Assembly: GCA_050250895.1 (NCBI GenBank)
Contig: JBFWNU010000001.1
Span: forward strand, 1,806,884 to 1,870,883
DNA length: 64,000 bases
Reading direction: 5' to 3'
From: Vulcanimicrobiota bacterium
GTDB taxonomy: Bacteria > Vulcanimicrobiota > Xenobia > Xenobiales > JADMJV01
Below are positions 10,841 through 25,637 of the stretch, one piece after another (the first letter of the stretch is position 1; each line of letters starts with the position of its first letter). Under the pieces are notes generated by a model. It was not told where the DNA came from, did no database searches, and saw only the letters and a list, made by a program, of their open reading frames with translations. The position numbers and the translations under genes were made by a program.

Positions 10841-10917
10841 GGGGTTATAGCTCAGCCGGTTAGAGCGCATCCCTGATAAGGATGAGGTCCGTGGTTCGAG
10901 TCCACGTAACCCCACCA
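10841..10917 (+). tRNA. tRNA-Ile (GAT)
   Basis: Acceptor stem GGGGTTA/TAACCCC, anticodon arm CATCC-CTGATAA-GGATG, GTTCGAG T-loop and encoded CCA. Confidence 0.97.
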
Positions 10918-10993: not shown

Positions 10994-11069
10994 GGGGCCA
11001 TAGCTCAGCTGGGAGAGCGCCTGCCTTGCACGTAGAAGGTCGTCGGTTCGAATCCGACTGGCTCCACCA
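10994..11069 (+). tRNA. tRNA-Ala (TGC)
   Basis: GGGGCCA/TGGCTCC acceptor stem with G3:U70, anticodon TGC, GTTCGAA and CCA end. Confidence 0.95.
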
Positions 11070-20778: not shown

Positions 20779-20912
20779 CCTCAAGAAATTATAAATGCAC
20801 CCCGGGCCAGACCCCTAGTTTACACTTGGGTCACCGAGCCGGTCAAGCCACAAAAGGAATGCAACCGGGAGGGGTGGAACGTGGCCGCTTACCCTGCTCA
20901 CTGGAGGGGCCA

Positions 20913-21731
20913 TTGCTGGCAAAAAAAATTGAAGAAGCGGTGGCGGCGGTTCGGCAACGTAGTGACGTGGTTGCCCATGCCGGCGTGATTCTAGGCTCAG
21001 GTTTGGGTCGCTTCGCCGACGAGGTGGAAGAAAGCGTTTCTATCCGCTTCGAGGATATCCCGCATTTCCCCGCCAGCACCGTATCGGGTCACGCTGGCGA
21101 ACTGGTGCTCGGCAAGTTTCACGGCCGGGGCGTGGCCGTCATGCGGGGGCGCGTTCACTATTATGAGGGCTACTCCATGCAGGAGATCACCTTTCCCGTT
21201 CGGGTGATGCGCGCCCTGGGGGCGGGTCTGCTGTTCGTCACCAACTCTTGTGGCGGCTTGCATCCCAAGTTTTTGCCAGGCGATCTGATGCTGATCGCCG
21301 ACCATATCAACATGATGGGCGACAATCCGTTGATTGGTCTCAATGATGAGCGTCTCGGGCCGCGCTTCCCACCCATGTCGCGGGCCTATGACGCCGACCT
21401 CCGCAAGTTGGCTCACGACGTGGCCTGCCATAACGGCATCAAGCTGCAAGAGGGGGTCTATTGCGCGCTCTCGGGGCCGAGCTACGAGACGCCAGCGGAG
21501 ATTCGCTTCTTTGAACGGATCGGAGCAGACGCGGTCGGAATGTCGACCGTTCCAGAGGTGATCGTGGCCAAGCACGCCGGCATGCGGGTGGTTGGTATCG
21601 CTTGTGTCACCAATGTGCTCCATCAGGGGCCCTCCAACGATACCCACGAAGATGTGCTCGAGGCTGCCGCCGGGGCCAGCACTCCGCTGCTGACTCTGGC
21701 TAAAGGCATTTTGGAACAGATGCCTCAATGA
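20913..21731 (+). CDS. punA: Purine-nucleoside phosphorylase (trimeric type)
   Basis: ILGSGLG, GRVHYYEG, GPSYETPAE and GMSTVPE; TTG start with GGAGG RBS. Confidence 0.93.
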   Translation: MLAKKIEEAVAAVRQRSDVVAHAGVILGSGLGRFADEVEESVSIRFEDIPHFPASTVSGHAGELVLGKFHGRGVAVMRGRVHYYEGYSMQEITFPVRVMRALGAGLLFVTNSCGGLHPKFLPGDLMLIADHINMMGDNPLIGLNDERLGPRFPPMSRAYDADLRKLAHDVACHNGIKLQEGVYCALSGPSYETPAEIRFFERIGADAVGMSTVPEVIVAKHAGMRVVGIACVTNVLHQGPSNDTHEDVLEAAAGASTPLLTLAKGILEQMPQ

Positions 21732-23032
21732 ATCCGGTTGCCCTGATTCGCCACAAGCGGGACGGGAAGGCCCATACCCGCGAAGAGATTCAGGCGATCG
21801 TGGATGGGATTGTCGACGGTTCGATGGATAGTTATCAGACGGCTGCCTGGCTGATGGCTGTCTGGTTTCAGGGGATGACCGACGAGGAGACGGGCTGGTT
21901 GACCCAGGCCATGATCGATTCGGGCGACACGGTCGACCTGAGTTCCATTCCCGGTATCAAGGTCGACAAGCATTCGACCGGAGGAGTCGGGGATACTACC
22001 ACGCTGGTGTTAGCGCCTCTGGTTGCGGCGGCCGGTGCCAAGGTGGCCAAGATGTCGGGTCGGGGGCTGGGGCATACAGGGGGCACCCTCGACAAGATGG
22101 AGGCGGTCGGTCTGTCGGTCGACCTGGATAGTCAGCGTTTTCTGCAGCAAGTGCGCGACCTTGGGGTGGCGGTCATCAGCCAGACCAAGAAATTGGTGCC
22201 GGCTGATGGAATTCTCTATGGCTTGCGCGACGTGACGGCAACGATTGACTCGGTGCCCCTCATCGCCTCGTCGGTCATGAGCAAAAAGTTGGCTTGTGGG
22301 GCCGATGCGATTTTGCTGGATGTCAAGTTTGGCGACGGAGCCTTTATGCCCGACCTCGAGTCGGGCCGACGCCTGGCCCACTGCATGGTCGCTATCGGTA
22401 ATCGCCTGGGGCGGCGTGTTCGCGCGGCCCTTTCAGACATGGATTGTCCGCTCGGGACCCATATCGGCAACGCTCTGGAGTTTCGCGAAGCGATCGAGAT
22501 TTTGCGGGGTGAGCACGGCGACTCGGCCCTGGCCAGGGTCGCTCTTGAGCTGGCTGCACAGCTGGTGTTCATGGCGGACCTGACCGACGATCTCGAGGCG
22601 GCCCAGGCCCGCGTGCGCCAGTTGGTAGAGGATGGCTCGGCCCTCAAGCGCATGCGCGAATGGATCGCCGCCCAGGACGGCGACCCCAACATGGTGGACG
22701 ATCTCGGGCTGTTGCCGAAAGCTGCCGAGTGCGAGATTCTGACAGCCGAAGCGGCCGGCTTTGTGACCCGGATGCAGGCTCGCCAGATTGGGGAGGCGGC
22801 CATGGCTCTGGGAGCTGGGCGAGTGCGCAAAACAGACCCCGTCGATCCCGCGGTGGGAGTGGTCTTGTTGGTCGAGCCGGGGCAGACGGTAGAAAAGGGG
22901 CAGCCTCTGGCTGAGCTCCACTCCAACGATTCCAAACGGACGAGCCAGGCCCGGCAGGCCTTGCGAGAAGCTGTCGCTATCGGCAAAGAGGCCCCGCCGC
23001 CCAGGCAGTTGATCCGCGAGTTTATCGGCTGA
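21728..23032 (+). CDS. pdp: Pyrimidine-nucleoside/thymidine phosphorylase
   Basis: DKHSTGGVGD, KMSGRGLGHTGGTLDK and SVMSKK. Confidence 0.95.
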   Translation: MNPVALIRHKRDGKAHTREEIQAIVDGIVDGSMDSYQTAAWLMAVWFQGMTDEETGWLTQAMIDSGDTVDLSSIPGIKVDKHSTGGVGDTTTLVLAPLVAAAGAKVAKMSGRGLGHTGGTLDKMEAVGLSVDLDSQRFLQQVRDLGVAVISQTKKLVPADGILYGLRDVTATIDSVPLIASSVMSKKLACGADAILLDVKFGDGAFMPDLESGRRLAHCMVAIGNRLGRRVRAALSDMDCPLGTHIGNALEFREAIEILRGEHGDSALARVALELAAQLVFMADLTDDLEAAQARVRQLVEDGSALKRMREWIAAQDGDPNMVDDLGLLPKAAECEILTAEAAGFVTRMQARQIGEAAMALGAGRVRKTDPVDPAVGVVLLVEPGQTVEKGQPLAELHSNDSKRTSQARQALREAVAIGKEAPPPRQLIREFIG

Positions 23033-23253: not shown

Positions 23254-25176
23254 ATGTCTCGTTACCGAGCCGTTCGCGGCACCTTTGACCTACTGCCAGA
23301 GCAGTTAGGGGCCTGGCATCATCTTGAGCAGGCAGCTCGACGCCTTTCCCACAACTACGGCTATGCCGAAATCAGGACCCCACTCTTCGAAGAAGCTGAG
23401 CTTTTTACCCGGGGTATGGGAGTATTGGCCGGCATCGTCGAGCGAGAGTTGTGGACCTTTCATGACAAGTTCGGCAAAAAACTCGCCCTGAGGGCCGATA
23501 TGACCACGGGAGTGGTGCGGGCCTTCCAGGAGCACAAGGGTGAGGCCGAAGGCCAACCTTTCAAAGTCTTCTATCTGGCACCCGTCTTTCTTCTGGGCAA
23601 GGATTCTGAGGAAGGCAGTCGCCAATCTCACCAGTTCGGAGTCGAGGCTATCGGTTCTGACAACCCGGCTCTCGACGCCGAGATGGTGGCTCTCGCTTCA
23701 GCCTTCTGCAACGAGATCGGGCTGGAAGGCCACAAGGTCGAGTTGAACTCGCTGGGTGGAGATAAGTGCCGTCCCCTCTATCACAAAAAGCTCAAAGACT
23801 ATTTCACTACTCATCAGAACGAGTTGTGCGCCACGTGCAAACGCAAGTTCAAAGCCCATCCGGCCTGGGTGCTTTCTTGTGAAGATCCCGCTTGTGTGGC
23901 CCTTTCTCAGGTCGCTCCCACCATCTATGGAATGCTCTCGAGCGACTGTAAGGCACACTTCAATACCCTCAAAGAGTATCTCAAAGAACTCGATATCAAC
24001 TTCGAACTCAATCCCCGAGTGGTGCGAGACCTCGAATACTACAACCGAACCGTGTTTCAGATTCGTTGCGGCGGCAAAGTGGTGGCCTTCGGCGGTCGTT
24101 ACGACGGCCTGGTCGAGGCTCTGGGGGGTAAGGCTACCCCTGGAGTGGGTTTTGCCGTCAATATCGAGACTGCTATCGACGTCTTGGGCAGCAACGCTAG
24201 AGAAGAAGATGTCGAGGGTCTTCAGGTCCTGCTCGACCCCGAGGGTCCAGAATCGACCAAGGTGATGGTGCCTGTCCTGGCCAGGCTGCGCCGAGCCGGA
24301 GTTCGCGCGGAGATGCGCTACGGACGCAGCGGCGCCGCTCTGCGTAAAAGCGCCCGCATCGTGGTCAAGCTCAATGAAGCCAACGCTTTTCGCGGTCACG
24401 CTATGCTCGAGGACTCGGAAGGCAGCGGCGACAAATTGCCGGCCGGTCGCCTGGGCGAGAAACTGTTGGCCTATCTCGGCGTAGACGAAGACTCTGGTAG
24501 CGGGGGCGGTTCTGATCGAGGTGGACGGCGCAAACTGTCGCGTCGTCCCCGCAAAGGGCGCGGAGAAGAGCGCGAGAGGGACCGCGACCGTGACAGGGAC
24601 CGTGACAGAGACCGAGACCGTGACAGAGATCGTGACCGTGACAGAGATCGTGACCGTGACAGAGACCGAGACCGTGACCGGGATCGCGACAAAGACCGTG
24701 ATCGAGACCGGGATCGAGACAAAGACCGTGACCGCGACAAAGACCGCGACCGCTCGCGTTCACGGGGCGGTCGGTCGAACGAGGCTGCCAACGAGCAGCG
24801 GGAACGGCCCGACGAGGATGAGGGACGTCGGCGCAAGCGCGGCCGTCGCCGCAAACAGGCCGAGGAGGAAGGTCGTCGCCCCGACGAACCAGCCGCTCCC
24901 CCGCGTCGCCAGGCCGAAACCGAGAAGGCATTCATCCCCTCACTGATGTTGGCCAATGTCGACGCCGAGCCGCTGCCGCGAGCCCCGCGTCCCAAGCCGA
25001 GCCGTCGTGATGAGCCGGCTTCAGAGCATGTTCCCGAGATGACCTCGGGTTTGAGTTGGTCGATCATGCCGGCCGCGCCGGCTCGCGGTGAAGGGAAGGA
25101 AGACTCGCCGTCGGGCGATAATTCCCGCCGGCGCAGCCGCTCCCGAAGCGCTGCTTCGAAGGAATCCGAAGAATGA
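23254..25176 (+). CDS. Histidyl-tRNA synthetase-like protein with degenerate active site and long low-complexity RD/RS-rich tail
   Basis: RGTFDLLP, YGYAEIRTPLFE and GGRYDGL are retained, but the motif 2 and motif 3 arginines appear substituted; about 230-aa charged tail. Confidence 0.85.
   Translation: MSRYRAVRGTFDLLPEQLGAWHHLEQAARRLSHNYGYAEIRTPLFEEAELFTRGMGVLAGIVERELWTFHDKFGKKLALRADMTTGVVRAFQEHKGEAEGQPFKVFYLAPVFLLGKDSEEGSRQSHQFGVEAIGSDNPALDAEMVALASAFCNEIGLEGHKVELNSLGGDKCRPLYHKKLKDYFTTHQNELCATCKRKFKAHPAWVLSCEDPACVALSQVAPTIYGMLSSDCKAHFNTLKEYLKELDINFELNPRVVRDLEYYNRTVFQIRCGGKVVAFGGRYDGLVEALGGKATPGVGFAVNIETAIDVLGSNAREEDVEGLQVLLDPEGPESTKVMVPVLARLRRAGVRAEMRYGRSGAALRKSARIVVKLNEANAFRGHAMLEDSEGSGDKLPAGRLGEKLLAYLGVDEDSGSGGGSDRGGRRKLSRRPRKGRGEERERDRDRDRDRDRDRDRDRDRDRDRDRDRDRDRDRDRDRDKDRDRDRDRDKDRDRDKDRDRSRSRGGRSNEAANEQRERPDEDEGRRRKRGRRRKQAEEEGRRPDEPAAPPRRQAETEKAFIPSLMLANVDAEPLPRAPRPKPSRRDEPASEHVPEMTSGLSWSIMPAAPARGEGKEDSPSGDNSRRRSRSRSAASKESEE
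24568..24753 (+). repeat. Coding tandem repeat encoding about 30 Arg/Lys-Asp dipeptides
   Basis: GACCGTGACAGAGAT/GACCGAGAC-type units with varied synonymous codons. Confidence 0.9.
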
Positions 25177-25637
25177 ACAAGACCGTCGAGTTAACCCGTC
25201 AATTGGCCGAGATCGCGAAAGCCAACGACCTGGCTGAGTTGGAATTTCAAGAGGGCGACGTGCGCATTCACATCGTGCTCGAGACCGAGGCTGCTGTCGC
25301 GGCAGCCGTGCCGCAGGTGGTCCTGGCTCACGGTCATCCGATGGCGGGGCCGGCCCCGGTGGCTCAGGCGCCTGCCGCCGAGCCGGCGGCACCGGCGATC
25401 GAGGGTGATACCATCGACTCGCCCCTACCCGGGGTCTTCTACCGCGCTTCCCGACCCGGAGCCCCGGCTTTCGTCGAGGAAGGGCAACAGGTTGCGCCGG
25501 GTCAGACGCTGTGTATTGTCGAGGCGATGAAGCTGATGAACGAGATTTCAGCCGAACGCCCCGGCAAGATCATGAAGATCCTGGTCGCCAACGGCGATGC
25601 CGTCGAAGAAGGCCAACCCCTCTTCGTTATCGCGTGA
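25173..25637 (+). CDS. accB: Acetyl-CoA carboxylase biotin carboxyl carrier protein
   Basis: SPLPGVFYR, IVEAMKLMNEI biotinylation site and an Ala/Pro linker. Confidence 0.95.
   Translation: MNKTVELTRQLAEIAKANDLAELEFQEGDVRIHIVLETEAAVAAAVPQVVLAHGHPMAGPAPVAQAPAAEPAAPAIEGDTIDSPLPGVFYRASRPGAPAFVEEGQQVAPGQTLCIVEAMKLMNEISAERPGKIMKILVANGDAVEEGQPLFVIA

Follow-up and report, generated by a model that had tools for sequence, protein, structure and literature searches.

A degenerate histidyl-tRNA synthetase with an arginine-rich tail as a candidate RNA-binding scaffold in Vulcanimicrobiota

A 64-kb stretch of DNA from a Vulcanimicrobiota bacterium (contig JBFWNU010000001.1, positions 1,806,884 to 1,870,883; here called the window) encodes, at positions 23254-25176 of its forward strand, a tailed protein derived from histidyl-tRNA synthetase (HisRS). 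The product of this open reading frame (ORF), pseudo-HisRS, is the query in all comparisons below, and the dead, tailed proteins related to it are referred to as the family. They belong to the bacterial kind of HisRS, which is labeled type-1 in this report to set it apart from a second kind, type-2. Judged by its residues, the query protein has lost both class II ATP-site arginines and with them the ability to form histidyl-adenylate. Strong purifying selection maintains the gene throughout an order of bacteria labeled Xenobia or Vulcanimicrobiota. The evidence modestly favors a reading in which pseudo-HisRS acts as a dimeric RNA- or tRNA-binding scaffold, made from a dead type-1 HisRS with an Arg-rich tail. 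The families f1, f2 and f3 mentioned below belong to this order, while f4 and f5 are other families of the same class.

Loss of the ATP-binding arginines

An original prediction, made by a model from the DNA letters and their translations, described a HisS scaffold with a Cys-containing insertion and a GGRYDGL motif, in which both class II ATP-binding arginines appeared to be lost. Alignments bear out this description. The first of them sets the query and 62 family members from a protein search against 58 ordinary HisS sequences. The family set was enlarged to 84 sequences, comprising the query, 22 proteins from genome loci and 61 from the protein search; it contains some mutual duplicates and excludes the 382-aa fragment P0054. 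Arginine is found at the motif 2 position in none of these 84 sequences (leucine in 73; Leu113 in the query) and at the motif 3 position likewise in none (Thr306 in the query), versus 58 of 58 ordinary HisS at each position. Only five family sequences carry R or K anywhere across query positions 303-310. Both arginines hold ATP in class II synthetases. For HisRS itself, the available part of PMC11363354 describes motifs 2 and 3 as the ATP-recognition elements.

The motifs quoted in the original prediction are all confirmed: LRADMT lies at residue 79, FLLGKDS at 112, RDLEYY at 258, GGRYDGL at 280 and NIET at 303, and the tail carries RSRSR at 500 and 627, FIPSLML at 560 and LSWSIMP at 600. The four cysteines of the insertion domain (C172, C192, C195 and C209) are at least 90% conserved over the family and ordinary HisS together. 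Several replacements are invariant or nearly fixed in the family, namely W67 (84/84), W205 (84/84; R in 58/58 ordinary HisS), D259 and E261. Core identity is 40-45% between the query and ordinary HisS and 25-28% between the query and real HisZ. In Pfam, the query matches PF13393 alone (residues 9-306, E 1.7e-42). It passes the hisS equivalog model TIGR00442 marginally, at 298.4 bits against a cut-off of 286.75, and its relatives score 231-325 bits.

This marginal pass, together with the HisA arginine and histidine pocket that are still present and the public name histidine--tRNA ligase, would speak for a HisRS that is still active and binds ATP in a non-canonical way. Such activity is highly improbable, given that both ATP-site arginines are missing from all 84 family sequences and that E115 is Gly in 78 of them. 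Some members also fall below the TIGR00442 cut-off (231 bits), and an intact second HisRS occurs in 38 of 39 genomes of the order.

Purifying selection on core and tail

Ratios of nonsynonymous to synonymous substitution rates (dN/dS) were obtained by the Nei-Gojobori method on 11 close pairs, several of which are close to saturation (dS >1). All 11 pairs give a core dN/dS of 0.026-0.138, and the six pairs with dS <1 give 0.03-0.138. The tail, which has many indels, gives 0.11-0.35 in the 10 computable pairs and 0.11-0.30 where dS <1, and it too is under purifying selection. Region by region, the family core is as conserved as real HisS, with the insertion and the second domain included. The low core values and the family-wide absence of the arginines agree with the original classification of the protein as a non-catalytic HisRS derivative.

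Predicted fold and second domain

An AlphaFold2 model built with a 119-sequence alignment reaches a predicted local distance difference test (pLDDT) score above 90 for almost all of residues 1-410, including a predicted beta-alpha-beta domain at 325-408, and falls below 50 over most of residues 420-640. When residues 1-415 are searched with Foldseek, the best matches are all full-length bacterial HisRS; 4e51 gives a template modeling (TM) score of 0.90 over 417 columns, and the HisRS-tRNA complex 4rdx gives 0.85. Among solved relatives found by sequence, HisRS is best (E 5.7e-67), and solved HisZ matches at E 1.9e-13 over the N-terminal third only. The second domain alone has no solved HisRS match by sequence (best E 0.57), and Pfam finds no HGTP_anticodon (PF03129) match in the query. 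The anticodon domain, which the original prediction called eroded, is thus eroded in sequence only, and the model retains its fold. Because the motif 1 residues of the dimer interface are as in real HisS (E39, R41, P43, E46, L50 and G56), the protein is presumably a dimer.

Selective retention of tRNA contacts

The residues of T. thermophilus HisRS that touch tRNA-His are named in the available part of PMC4357726; their numbers in the core equal the query numbers minus one, and they were counted in the 84 sequences. Contacts to G-1 and the 5'-phosphate are kept, with R8 in 74/84, K or R at 116 in 82/84 and R123 in 80/84. Contacts to the CCA end are replaced: E115 by Gly (78/84), Q118 by Gly (57/84), R205 by Trp (84/84) and K210 by Glu or Pro (63/84), and R121 is still Arg in only 30/84. 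The anticodon segment G-E-D/E-E has become D-E-S-N in the family, where its last Glu (E377) is N or D in 74/84, and the U35-reading Gln (Q392) is kept in only 17/84. New conserved basic residues are present in the second domain, namely R380 (77/84), K/R394 (73/84) and R399 (58/84). As far as aligned residues can tell, the pattern resembles that of the HisRS-like module of GCN2, with 5'-end arginines kept and the CCA-guiding and anticodon-reading residues replaced.

This selectivity bears on the idea that the dead core is an inert platform, a dimerization module that makes no contact with RNA and leaves all function to the tail. The motif 1 residues shared with real HisS fit such a platform, as do the conserved motifs of the tail and the purifying selection on it. 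However, conservation throughout the core, insertion and second domain included, equals that of active HisS, and keeping the 5'-end-binding arginines while neighboring contacts are replaced would be needless for a mere platform. An inert platform is therefore unlikely.

The arginine-rich tail

The original prediction put the tail at about 230 residues with about 30 RD/KD dipeptides, which comes close to the 225 residues, 27 RD and 3 KD dipeptides counted here. Arginine makes up 27% of the tail, aspartate 16% and glutamate 10%, and the net charge is +12 at a charged-residue fraction of 0.59. The repeat codons are indeed varied: the run of 29 dipeptides uses six Arg and two Asp codons, and the DNA-level repeat is imperfect, at 70-78%.

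Motif statistics cover 62 tails of at least 60 residues, compared with composition-preserving shuffles. Island 1 (K-A-hydrophobic-hydrophobic-P-x-L/F) occurs in 50/62 tails versus 0.01 expected, and island 2 (L-N/S-W-S-I) in 53/62 versus 0.03 expected; because the patterns were derived from the same sequences, the comparison shows only that the motifs are non-compositional. Runs of at least six R/K are present in 25/62 tails versus 3.1 expected, a count that excludes the query box, which is broken by Gly. In 12 aligned sequences, K, A, P and L of island 1 and L, W, S and I of island 2 are invariant. The islands lie about 40-50 residues apart and, in many members, about 80 and 40 residues from the C-terminus. 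The putative linear interaction motifs suggested in the original prediction are thus well represented across relatives.

Conservation of the tail among relatives, which the original prediction had listed as a check, holds for its charge and motifs and not for the long RD run. Composition varies across the 62 tails, which are always highly charged and Arg-rich, and Arg-rich mixed charge is found in all lineages. Tail length in the dead family spans 140-600 residues, and in f2 and f3 it reaches about 680. Alternating (R/K)(D/E) runs of at least four occur in 19/62 tails and of at least eight in only 2/62, and the query run of 30 is the extreme; a relative from the same genus has no such run. By these comparisons, the Arg-rich mixed-charge character and the motifs are conserved and the RD repeat is not. 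The f2 and f3 tails lack both islands; they are longer and contain segments rich in Tyr/Ser/Asp and in RS. The small-genome f2 versions (L024-L027, L035 and L036, from genomes of 1.9-3.5 Mb) are 730-1,090 aa long and have prion-like Tyr/Ser/Asp-rich stretches and RS-rich ends.

Within the genome, no other ORF among 58,562 stop-to-stop ORFs of at least 80 aa carries the island pair at a spacing of 20-90 residues. The notion of a shared sorting tag was dropped, as pseudo-HisRS is the only ORF with both islands. A profile of the island module built from 12 sequences and run against 1.84 billion representatives yields six matches at E <=0.001: two family members, two short family fragments, a cadherin-like repeat protein and an Ala/Gly/Lys-rich protein of 2,737 aa. 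The last two were inspected and judged unrelated. Across these searches, the two islands come out as genuine conserved linear motifs that are private to the family.

Other candidate relationships of the tail were rejected. NCBIfam matches to a splicing-factor family and to MSCRAMM SD-repeat adhesins lie far below the cut-offs and are compositional. Island 1 was considered as a mimic of the FtsZ tail and dropped, since the C-terminal peptides of the genome's FtsZ, LEPAIFRR and NLPAIWRR, are unlike KAFIPSLML. These peptide types, NLPAIWRR and LEPAIFRR, end two FtsZ-like ORFs with a tubulin signature, located at C1:883081-884472(-) and C6:5839-7128(+), each of which has a long Pro/Ala-rich stretch.

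Strongly mixed charge is rare in this genome: of the ORFs of at least 200 aa, only eight have a stretch of 80 residues in which basic and acidic residues each make up at least 30%. Among these eight, the sole RD/RS-type region besides pseudo-HisRS is the N-terminal insertion of Rho, an RNA-binding protein. This Rho (563 aa; contig C6, L039:625-2316; TIGR00767 614 bits) carries RSRS, RDRD and acidic blocks in its insertion.

Proposed mode of action and its rivals

In the scaffold reading, the core would dock the 5' acceptor end of tRNA, and it would lack the ability to guide the CCA end into the dead site or to read the GUG anticodon. The Arg-rich tail could add non-specific RNA affinity and multivalency, possibly leading to condensates. 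In f1, the two conserved tail motifs may recruit a partner. The protein would act like the GCN2 HisRS-like module, in a bacterial and kinase-less form, and not like HisZ.

GCN2 is a known parallel for such a scaffold. According to the available part of PMC11363354, its HisRS-like domain is a pseudoenzyme that keeps the catalytic-type and anticodon-type folds and GGRYD and has lost the adenylate elements. The same source states that the second domain lacks anticodon-decoding side chains and that motif 2 is still needed for tRNA binding. The ligand of the GCN2 module is deacylated tRNA, and the basic C-terminal region that comes after it has been implicated in binding the ribosome. Pseudo-HisRS likewise keeps both folds, as predicted here, and has lost the adenylate-forming residues. 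Unlike GCN2, it has no kinase, pseudokinase or other fused domain, and it is a bacterial protein with an independent origin inside type-1 HisS. In addition, the family keeps the HisA Arg and two Tyr that GCN2 has lost. Because no kinase, pseudokinase or extra domain was found, pseudo-HisRS is analogous to GCN2 and not a member of that group. A more specific proposal, which remains tentative and rather unlikely, is a stand-alone GCN2-like sensor that captures (deacylated) tRNA or rRNA. Its RD/RS/Tyr-rich tail would nucleate a condensate, or its motifs would recruit a partner, and it would thereby couple translation status to a downstream process.

Several observations weigh against the scaffold reading. 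Specificity for tRNA-His is doubtful because the anticodon-reading residues are replaced, and the absence of the islands from f2 and f3 means that an island function is not family-wide. Searches of the Atlas for look-alikes of the tail returned none over the reliability bars (feature score <=0.83, TM <=0.35). The tail and the Rho insertion are alike in composition, with no sequence similarity (E 4.0). Fused effector domains were sought in longer relatives and none was found, a weak negative; the two matches of that search are one long-tailed member and one gene-call fusion with ordinary HisS. The histidine pocket, moreover, is mostly kept: HisA R258 is present in 75/84, Y262 in 79/84 and Y263 in 82/84, the R, Y and D of GGRYD in 84, 75 and 84 of 84, and T84, Q127 and E131 in 78, 79 and 79. 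A retained pocket, unlike the situation in GCN2, hints at a possible ligand-sensing role that a scaffold does not need. The small-genome f2 lineage (six sequences) is without this pocket, with P258 in 5/6, C262 in 4/6 and C283 in 5/6.

In a ligand-sensor reading, the pocket would bind histidine or a related molecule without ATP and the protein would report amino-acid status through the tail, with RNA inessential. The residues T84, Q127, E131, R258, Y262, Y263 and GGRYD are conserved in most of the family, and the changes that line the pocket are fixed family-wide, not random (E82->D in 79/84, G259->D in 83/84 and D261->E in 81/84). Yet the small-genome lineage has lost most pocket residues and still shows a core dN/dS of 0.03, which places the family-wide constraint elsewhere than on the pocket. 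Neither Pfam nor the weakly negative search of longer relatives shows an output domain. A ligand sensor is accordingly quite unlikely.

Origin within type-1 HisS and probable displacement by type-2

The genome (9.5 Mb, 17 contigs) contains a second hisS match, L001, at 353 bits on TIGR00442. This is the intact copy that the original prediction had proposed to look for. It is of type-2; its product is 449-483 aa long, has an HGTP_anticodon Pfam match and shares 21-24% identity with the query; motifs 2 and 3, HisA and HisB are intact by sequence. Type-2 HisRS is plausibly the working enzyme of the genome. A single standard tRNA-His gene is present; it encodes both the G at -1 and the CCA end and has C73.

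Distribution was surveyed in 151 genomes sampled from the phylum, of which G127 is flagged as unpublished and supports no conclusion. The tailed type-1 copy is found in 15/15 genomes of f1, 18/19 of f2 and 4/5 of f3, or 37/39 in the whole order; the two misses are genomes that are 72% and 90% complete. Type-2 HisRS is found in 14/15, 19/19 and 5/5, or 38/39 (the miss is 75% complete), and in 4/4 genomes of f4 and f5 together. Five genomes of f11, f12, f17 and f18 with no or only a faint type-1 match have it as well; in several genomes of the phylum outside the order, no other HisRS-like match is present. Elsewhere in the sampled phylum, for example 0/71 genomes of f15, type-2 was not found, and ordinary type-1 HisS of 420-450 aa is present. 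Where public records are titled, the hosts of the family are metagenome-assembled genomes labeled Candidatus Xenobia, Vulcanimicrobiota or Eremiobacterota.

In a maximum-likelihood phylogeny of 67 sequences, computed with IQ-TREE (quick search, LG+G4) and rooted on type-2, the 23 tailed dead sequences fall in one clade (SH-aLRT 100), whose inner branching tracks the genome families. Its sister group (89) is f4 plus f5, and it nests within type-1 HisS (98). Pseudo-HisRS is the ancestral type-1 hisS at its old locus, with its function presumably displaced by type-2. A stray paralog is ruled out by conserved synteny and by the position of the clade inside type-1 HisS.

The sister lineages have lost other elements. 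In three f4 proteins (L031, L032 and L033, in G108, G102 and G040), both ATP-site arginines are still present, and the TIGR00442 scores reach 388-402 bits. Their R/D/E-rich tails of 92-256 residues have islands of their own, FDEWA-TY and a Trp island that resembles island 2; a charged tail thus exists in a lineage that still has both arginines. Their HisA arginine is replaced by His, His and Asn. In the available part of PMC11363354, this arginine is responsible for catalysis of histidine activation. Judged by their residues, the f4 type-1 proteins may not be normal enzymes either. The f5 copy (L034:4965-6287, G090) is 440 aa long and untailed, with degenerate motifs 2 and 3 and a score of 278 bits, below the cut-off. 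The genome also has type-2 HisRS, and the copy appears to have eroded independently. Every type-1 copy seen in the class has lost some catalytic element, and the lost elements differ between lineages, a pattern in keeping with selection on catalysis having relaxed in the presence of type-2.

HisZ, the regulatory subunit of short-form ATP phosphoribosyltransferase, whose HisG has no regulatory domain of its own, offers a further explanation, since it is also a bacterial non-catalytic HisRS relative. Forcing the dead clade to group with HisZ costs 17.2 lnL units, and the AU test does not reject this (p 0.20); for that reason the tree alone does not settle the matter, and it is the other HisZ criteria that exclude the relationship. 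On TIGR00443 the query reaches 151.2, where the cut-off is 271.65; its scores on all 17 other HisZ models are likewise far too low to pass, and HisZ is over its cut-off in 0/19 sampled genomes of the class. The genome's single HisG is of the long form with its own regulatory domain (HisG_C, 81 bits) and is encoded on another contig, in line with the original statement that hisG is not nearby. Unlike HisZ, pseudo-HisRS has the extra second domain, outside the coverage of the solved HisZ matches, and a tail, and its identity to real HisZ is well below its identity to ordinary HisS. The five genuine HisZ form a separate clade (100) in the maximum-likelihood tree, while the query's clade sits inside type-1 HisS. 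The HisZ alternative, which the original prediction had itself raised as one to check, retains next to no probability.

Linkage to accB

The gene order is purine nucleoside phosphorylase, pyrimidine nucleoside phosphorylase, pseudo-HisRS and accB (PNP-PyNP-hisS-accB). As originally noted, the pseudo-HisRS stop and the accB start share an ATGA overlap; overlaps of 1-4 nt between hisS and accB also occur in several relatives and point to coupling. The accB gene adjoins in 10/11 f1 loci (the eleventh ends too early), in 2/2 f3 loci and in 2/3 of the g8/g9 loci of f2, and in 0/6 small-genome f2 loci. The last have a second PNP-like gene downstream, where accB would adjoin. In the sister family f4, accB directly follows type-1 hisS in 2/3 loci (the third contig ends), and the same heparinase-like gene comes next.

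A partner or regulator of acetyl-CoA carboxylase, acting via the coupled biotin carboxyl carrier protein (BCCP), could be read into this arrangement. The overlaps and the adjacency in f1, f3 and g8/g9 of f2 speak for it, as does the fact that the coupled accB (25173-25637) is the only BCCP above the model cut-off in the genome and lies away from accC. But the hisS-accB linkage looks inherited because it is also present in f4, adjacency is lost in the six small-genome loci that keep the protein, and the presence of the tail motifs does not follow accB adjacency. A carboxylase function is very unlikely. The accC gene proper lies on another contig (C2:775830-777466), directly after a short ORF with a biotinyl domain that scores below the BCCP cut-off.

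Comparison with other systems and implications

Bacterial HisS (TIGR00442; 4e51, 1qe0, 1kmm and 4rdx) is the direct evolutionary parent of pseudo-HisRS. Over some 415 residues, second domain included, the two have the same fold by prediction, and they have in common motif 1, the insertion domain with its four Cys, GGRYD of HisB and most of HisA. Unlike bacterial HisS, pseudo-HisRS has replaced the motif 2 and 3 arginines, the CCA contacts and the anticodon-reading residues, has gained a tail of 225 aa and coexists with a second HisRS.

The tail has parallels elsewhere. The available part of PMC11347177 reports that disordered Arg-rich insertions of atypical Rho aid RNA binding in M. tuberculosis and B. 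fragilis, and that a Rho insertion drives phase separation in B. thetaiotaomicron. These are likewise biased, disordered, Arg-rich segments on a conserved bacterial RNA-handling protein, and one is present in this genome's own Rho. The pseudo-HisRS tail differs in that its host protein is another one whose enzymatic function is lost, and no sequence similarity is seen. Eukaryotic nuclear-speckle mixed-charge/RS domains share the RD repeats, RS stretches, high alternating charge and predicted disorder, and according to the available part of bioRxiv 10.1101/771592, condensation of pure RD repeats depends on their length. Those proteins are eukaryotic and nuclear, and the long RD run of pseudo-HisRS is lineage-specific. 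Eukaryotic aminoacyl-tRNA synthetase extensions, such as the N-terminal domain of human LysRS, are also basic disordered appendages on a synthetase scaffold. In the available part of PMC6213541, such extensions contact tRNA and bacterial counterparts lack them; these extensions belong to active synthetases, and compared with the pseudo-HisRS tail they are Lys-rich and far shorter.

The two non-catalytic HisRS derivatives known so far are HisZ and GCN2. In Table 1 of PMC9437257, a 2022 review of aminoacyl-tRNA synthetase duplications available in part, HisZ is the only HisRS paralog function. The literature searched, whose scope leaves out most subscription journals, contains no description of the pseudo-HisRS family. 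Its most striking trait is a eukaryote-like mixed-charge/RS tail on a bacterial protein; synthetase-derived pseudoenzymes themselves are already known. The family would be a third, independent repurposing of the HisRS scaffold alongside HisZ and GCN2. The history remains readable, with two HisRS types that coexist, lineages that lose different catalytic residues and part of the tRNA-contact surface kept. The family thus offers a natural system for what a synthetase scaffold does once catalysis is dispensable, and for Arg-rich mixed-charge tails that would act on RNA in bacteria outside Rho.

The family also matters for annotation. Public names of the protein-search matches (P0001-P0062), where given, are histidine--tRNA ligase or histidyl-tRNA synthetase. 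For this family, the name histidine--tRNA ligase is likely an over-annotation. Metabolic reconstructions for the phylum may count the wrong gene, because public sources and the equivalog model call the family histidine--tRNA ligase.

Features of the locus and its leader

Table 1. Coordinates of pseudo-HisRS, its parts and its neighbors in the window
Feature	Position	Strand	Basis or remark
Pseudo-HisRS with tail, whole ORF, 640 aa	23254..25176	+	ORF list; Pfam PF13393 only; TIGR00442 298.4 bits
Class II HisRS-like catalytic-core fold (predicted), residues 1-320	23254..24213	+	pLDDT >90; Foldseek top matches all bacterial HisRS
Insertion domain, residues 169-250, four conserved Cys, Arg205->Trp	23758..24003	+	Alignment
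Anticodon-binding-like alpha/beta domain (predicted), residues 321-410	24214..24483	+	No PF03129 match; pLDDT >90, beta-alpha-beta
Arg-rich mixed-charge tail, predicted disordered, residues 416-640 (225 aa)	24499..25173	+	pLDDT <50 mostly
Basic box GRRKLSR directly after the fold	24523..24543	+	Regex match in 35/62 tails vs 0.1 expected
Run of 29 (R/K)D dipeptides, residues 442-499	24577..24750	+	Lineage-specific expansion
Poly-basic box RRRKRGRRRK	24826..24855	+	
Island 1, KAFIPSLML, conserved short linear motif	24925..24951	+	50/62 tails
Island 2, LSWSIMP, mostly LNWSI in relatives, conserved short linear motif some 40 residues before the C-terminus	25051..25071	+	53/62 tails
accB (BCCP)	25173..25637	+	TIGR00531 132 bits; downstream, translationally coupled
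Purine and pyrimidine nucleoside phosphorylase genes (PNP, PyNP)	20826..23032	+	Upstream neighbors conserved across the order
Heparinase II/III-like gene, 720 aa	25900-28062		Conserved neighbor of the hisS-accB pair in f1, f2 g8/g9 and f4
Two tRNA genes	10841-10914 and 10994-11066		Sole Rfam matches in the window at gathering threshold

A search for a leader RNA of the pseudo-HisRS gene with Rfam at gathering thresholds over the window returned nothing besides the two tRNAs. No sigma-70-like promoter was found in the leader, and terminator-like sites occur at about chance level. Across the 260 nt upstream of 16 loci, the only common features are an A/T-rich stretch and a GAGG ribosome-binding site, which in the window lies 5' of the pseudo-HisRS ORF.

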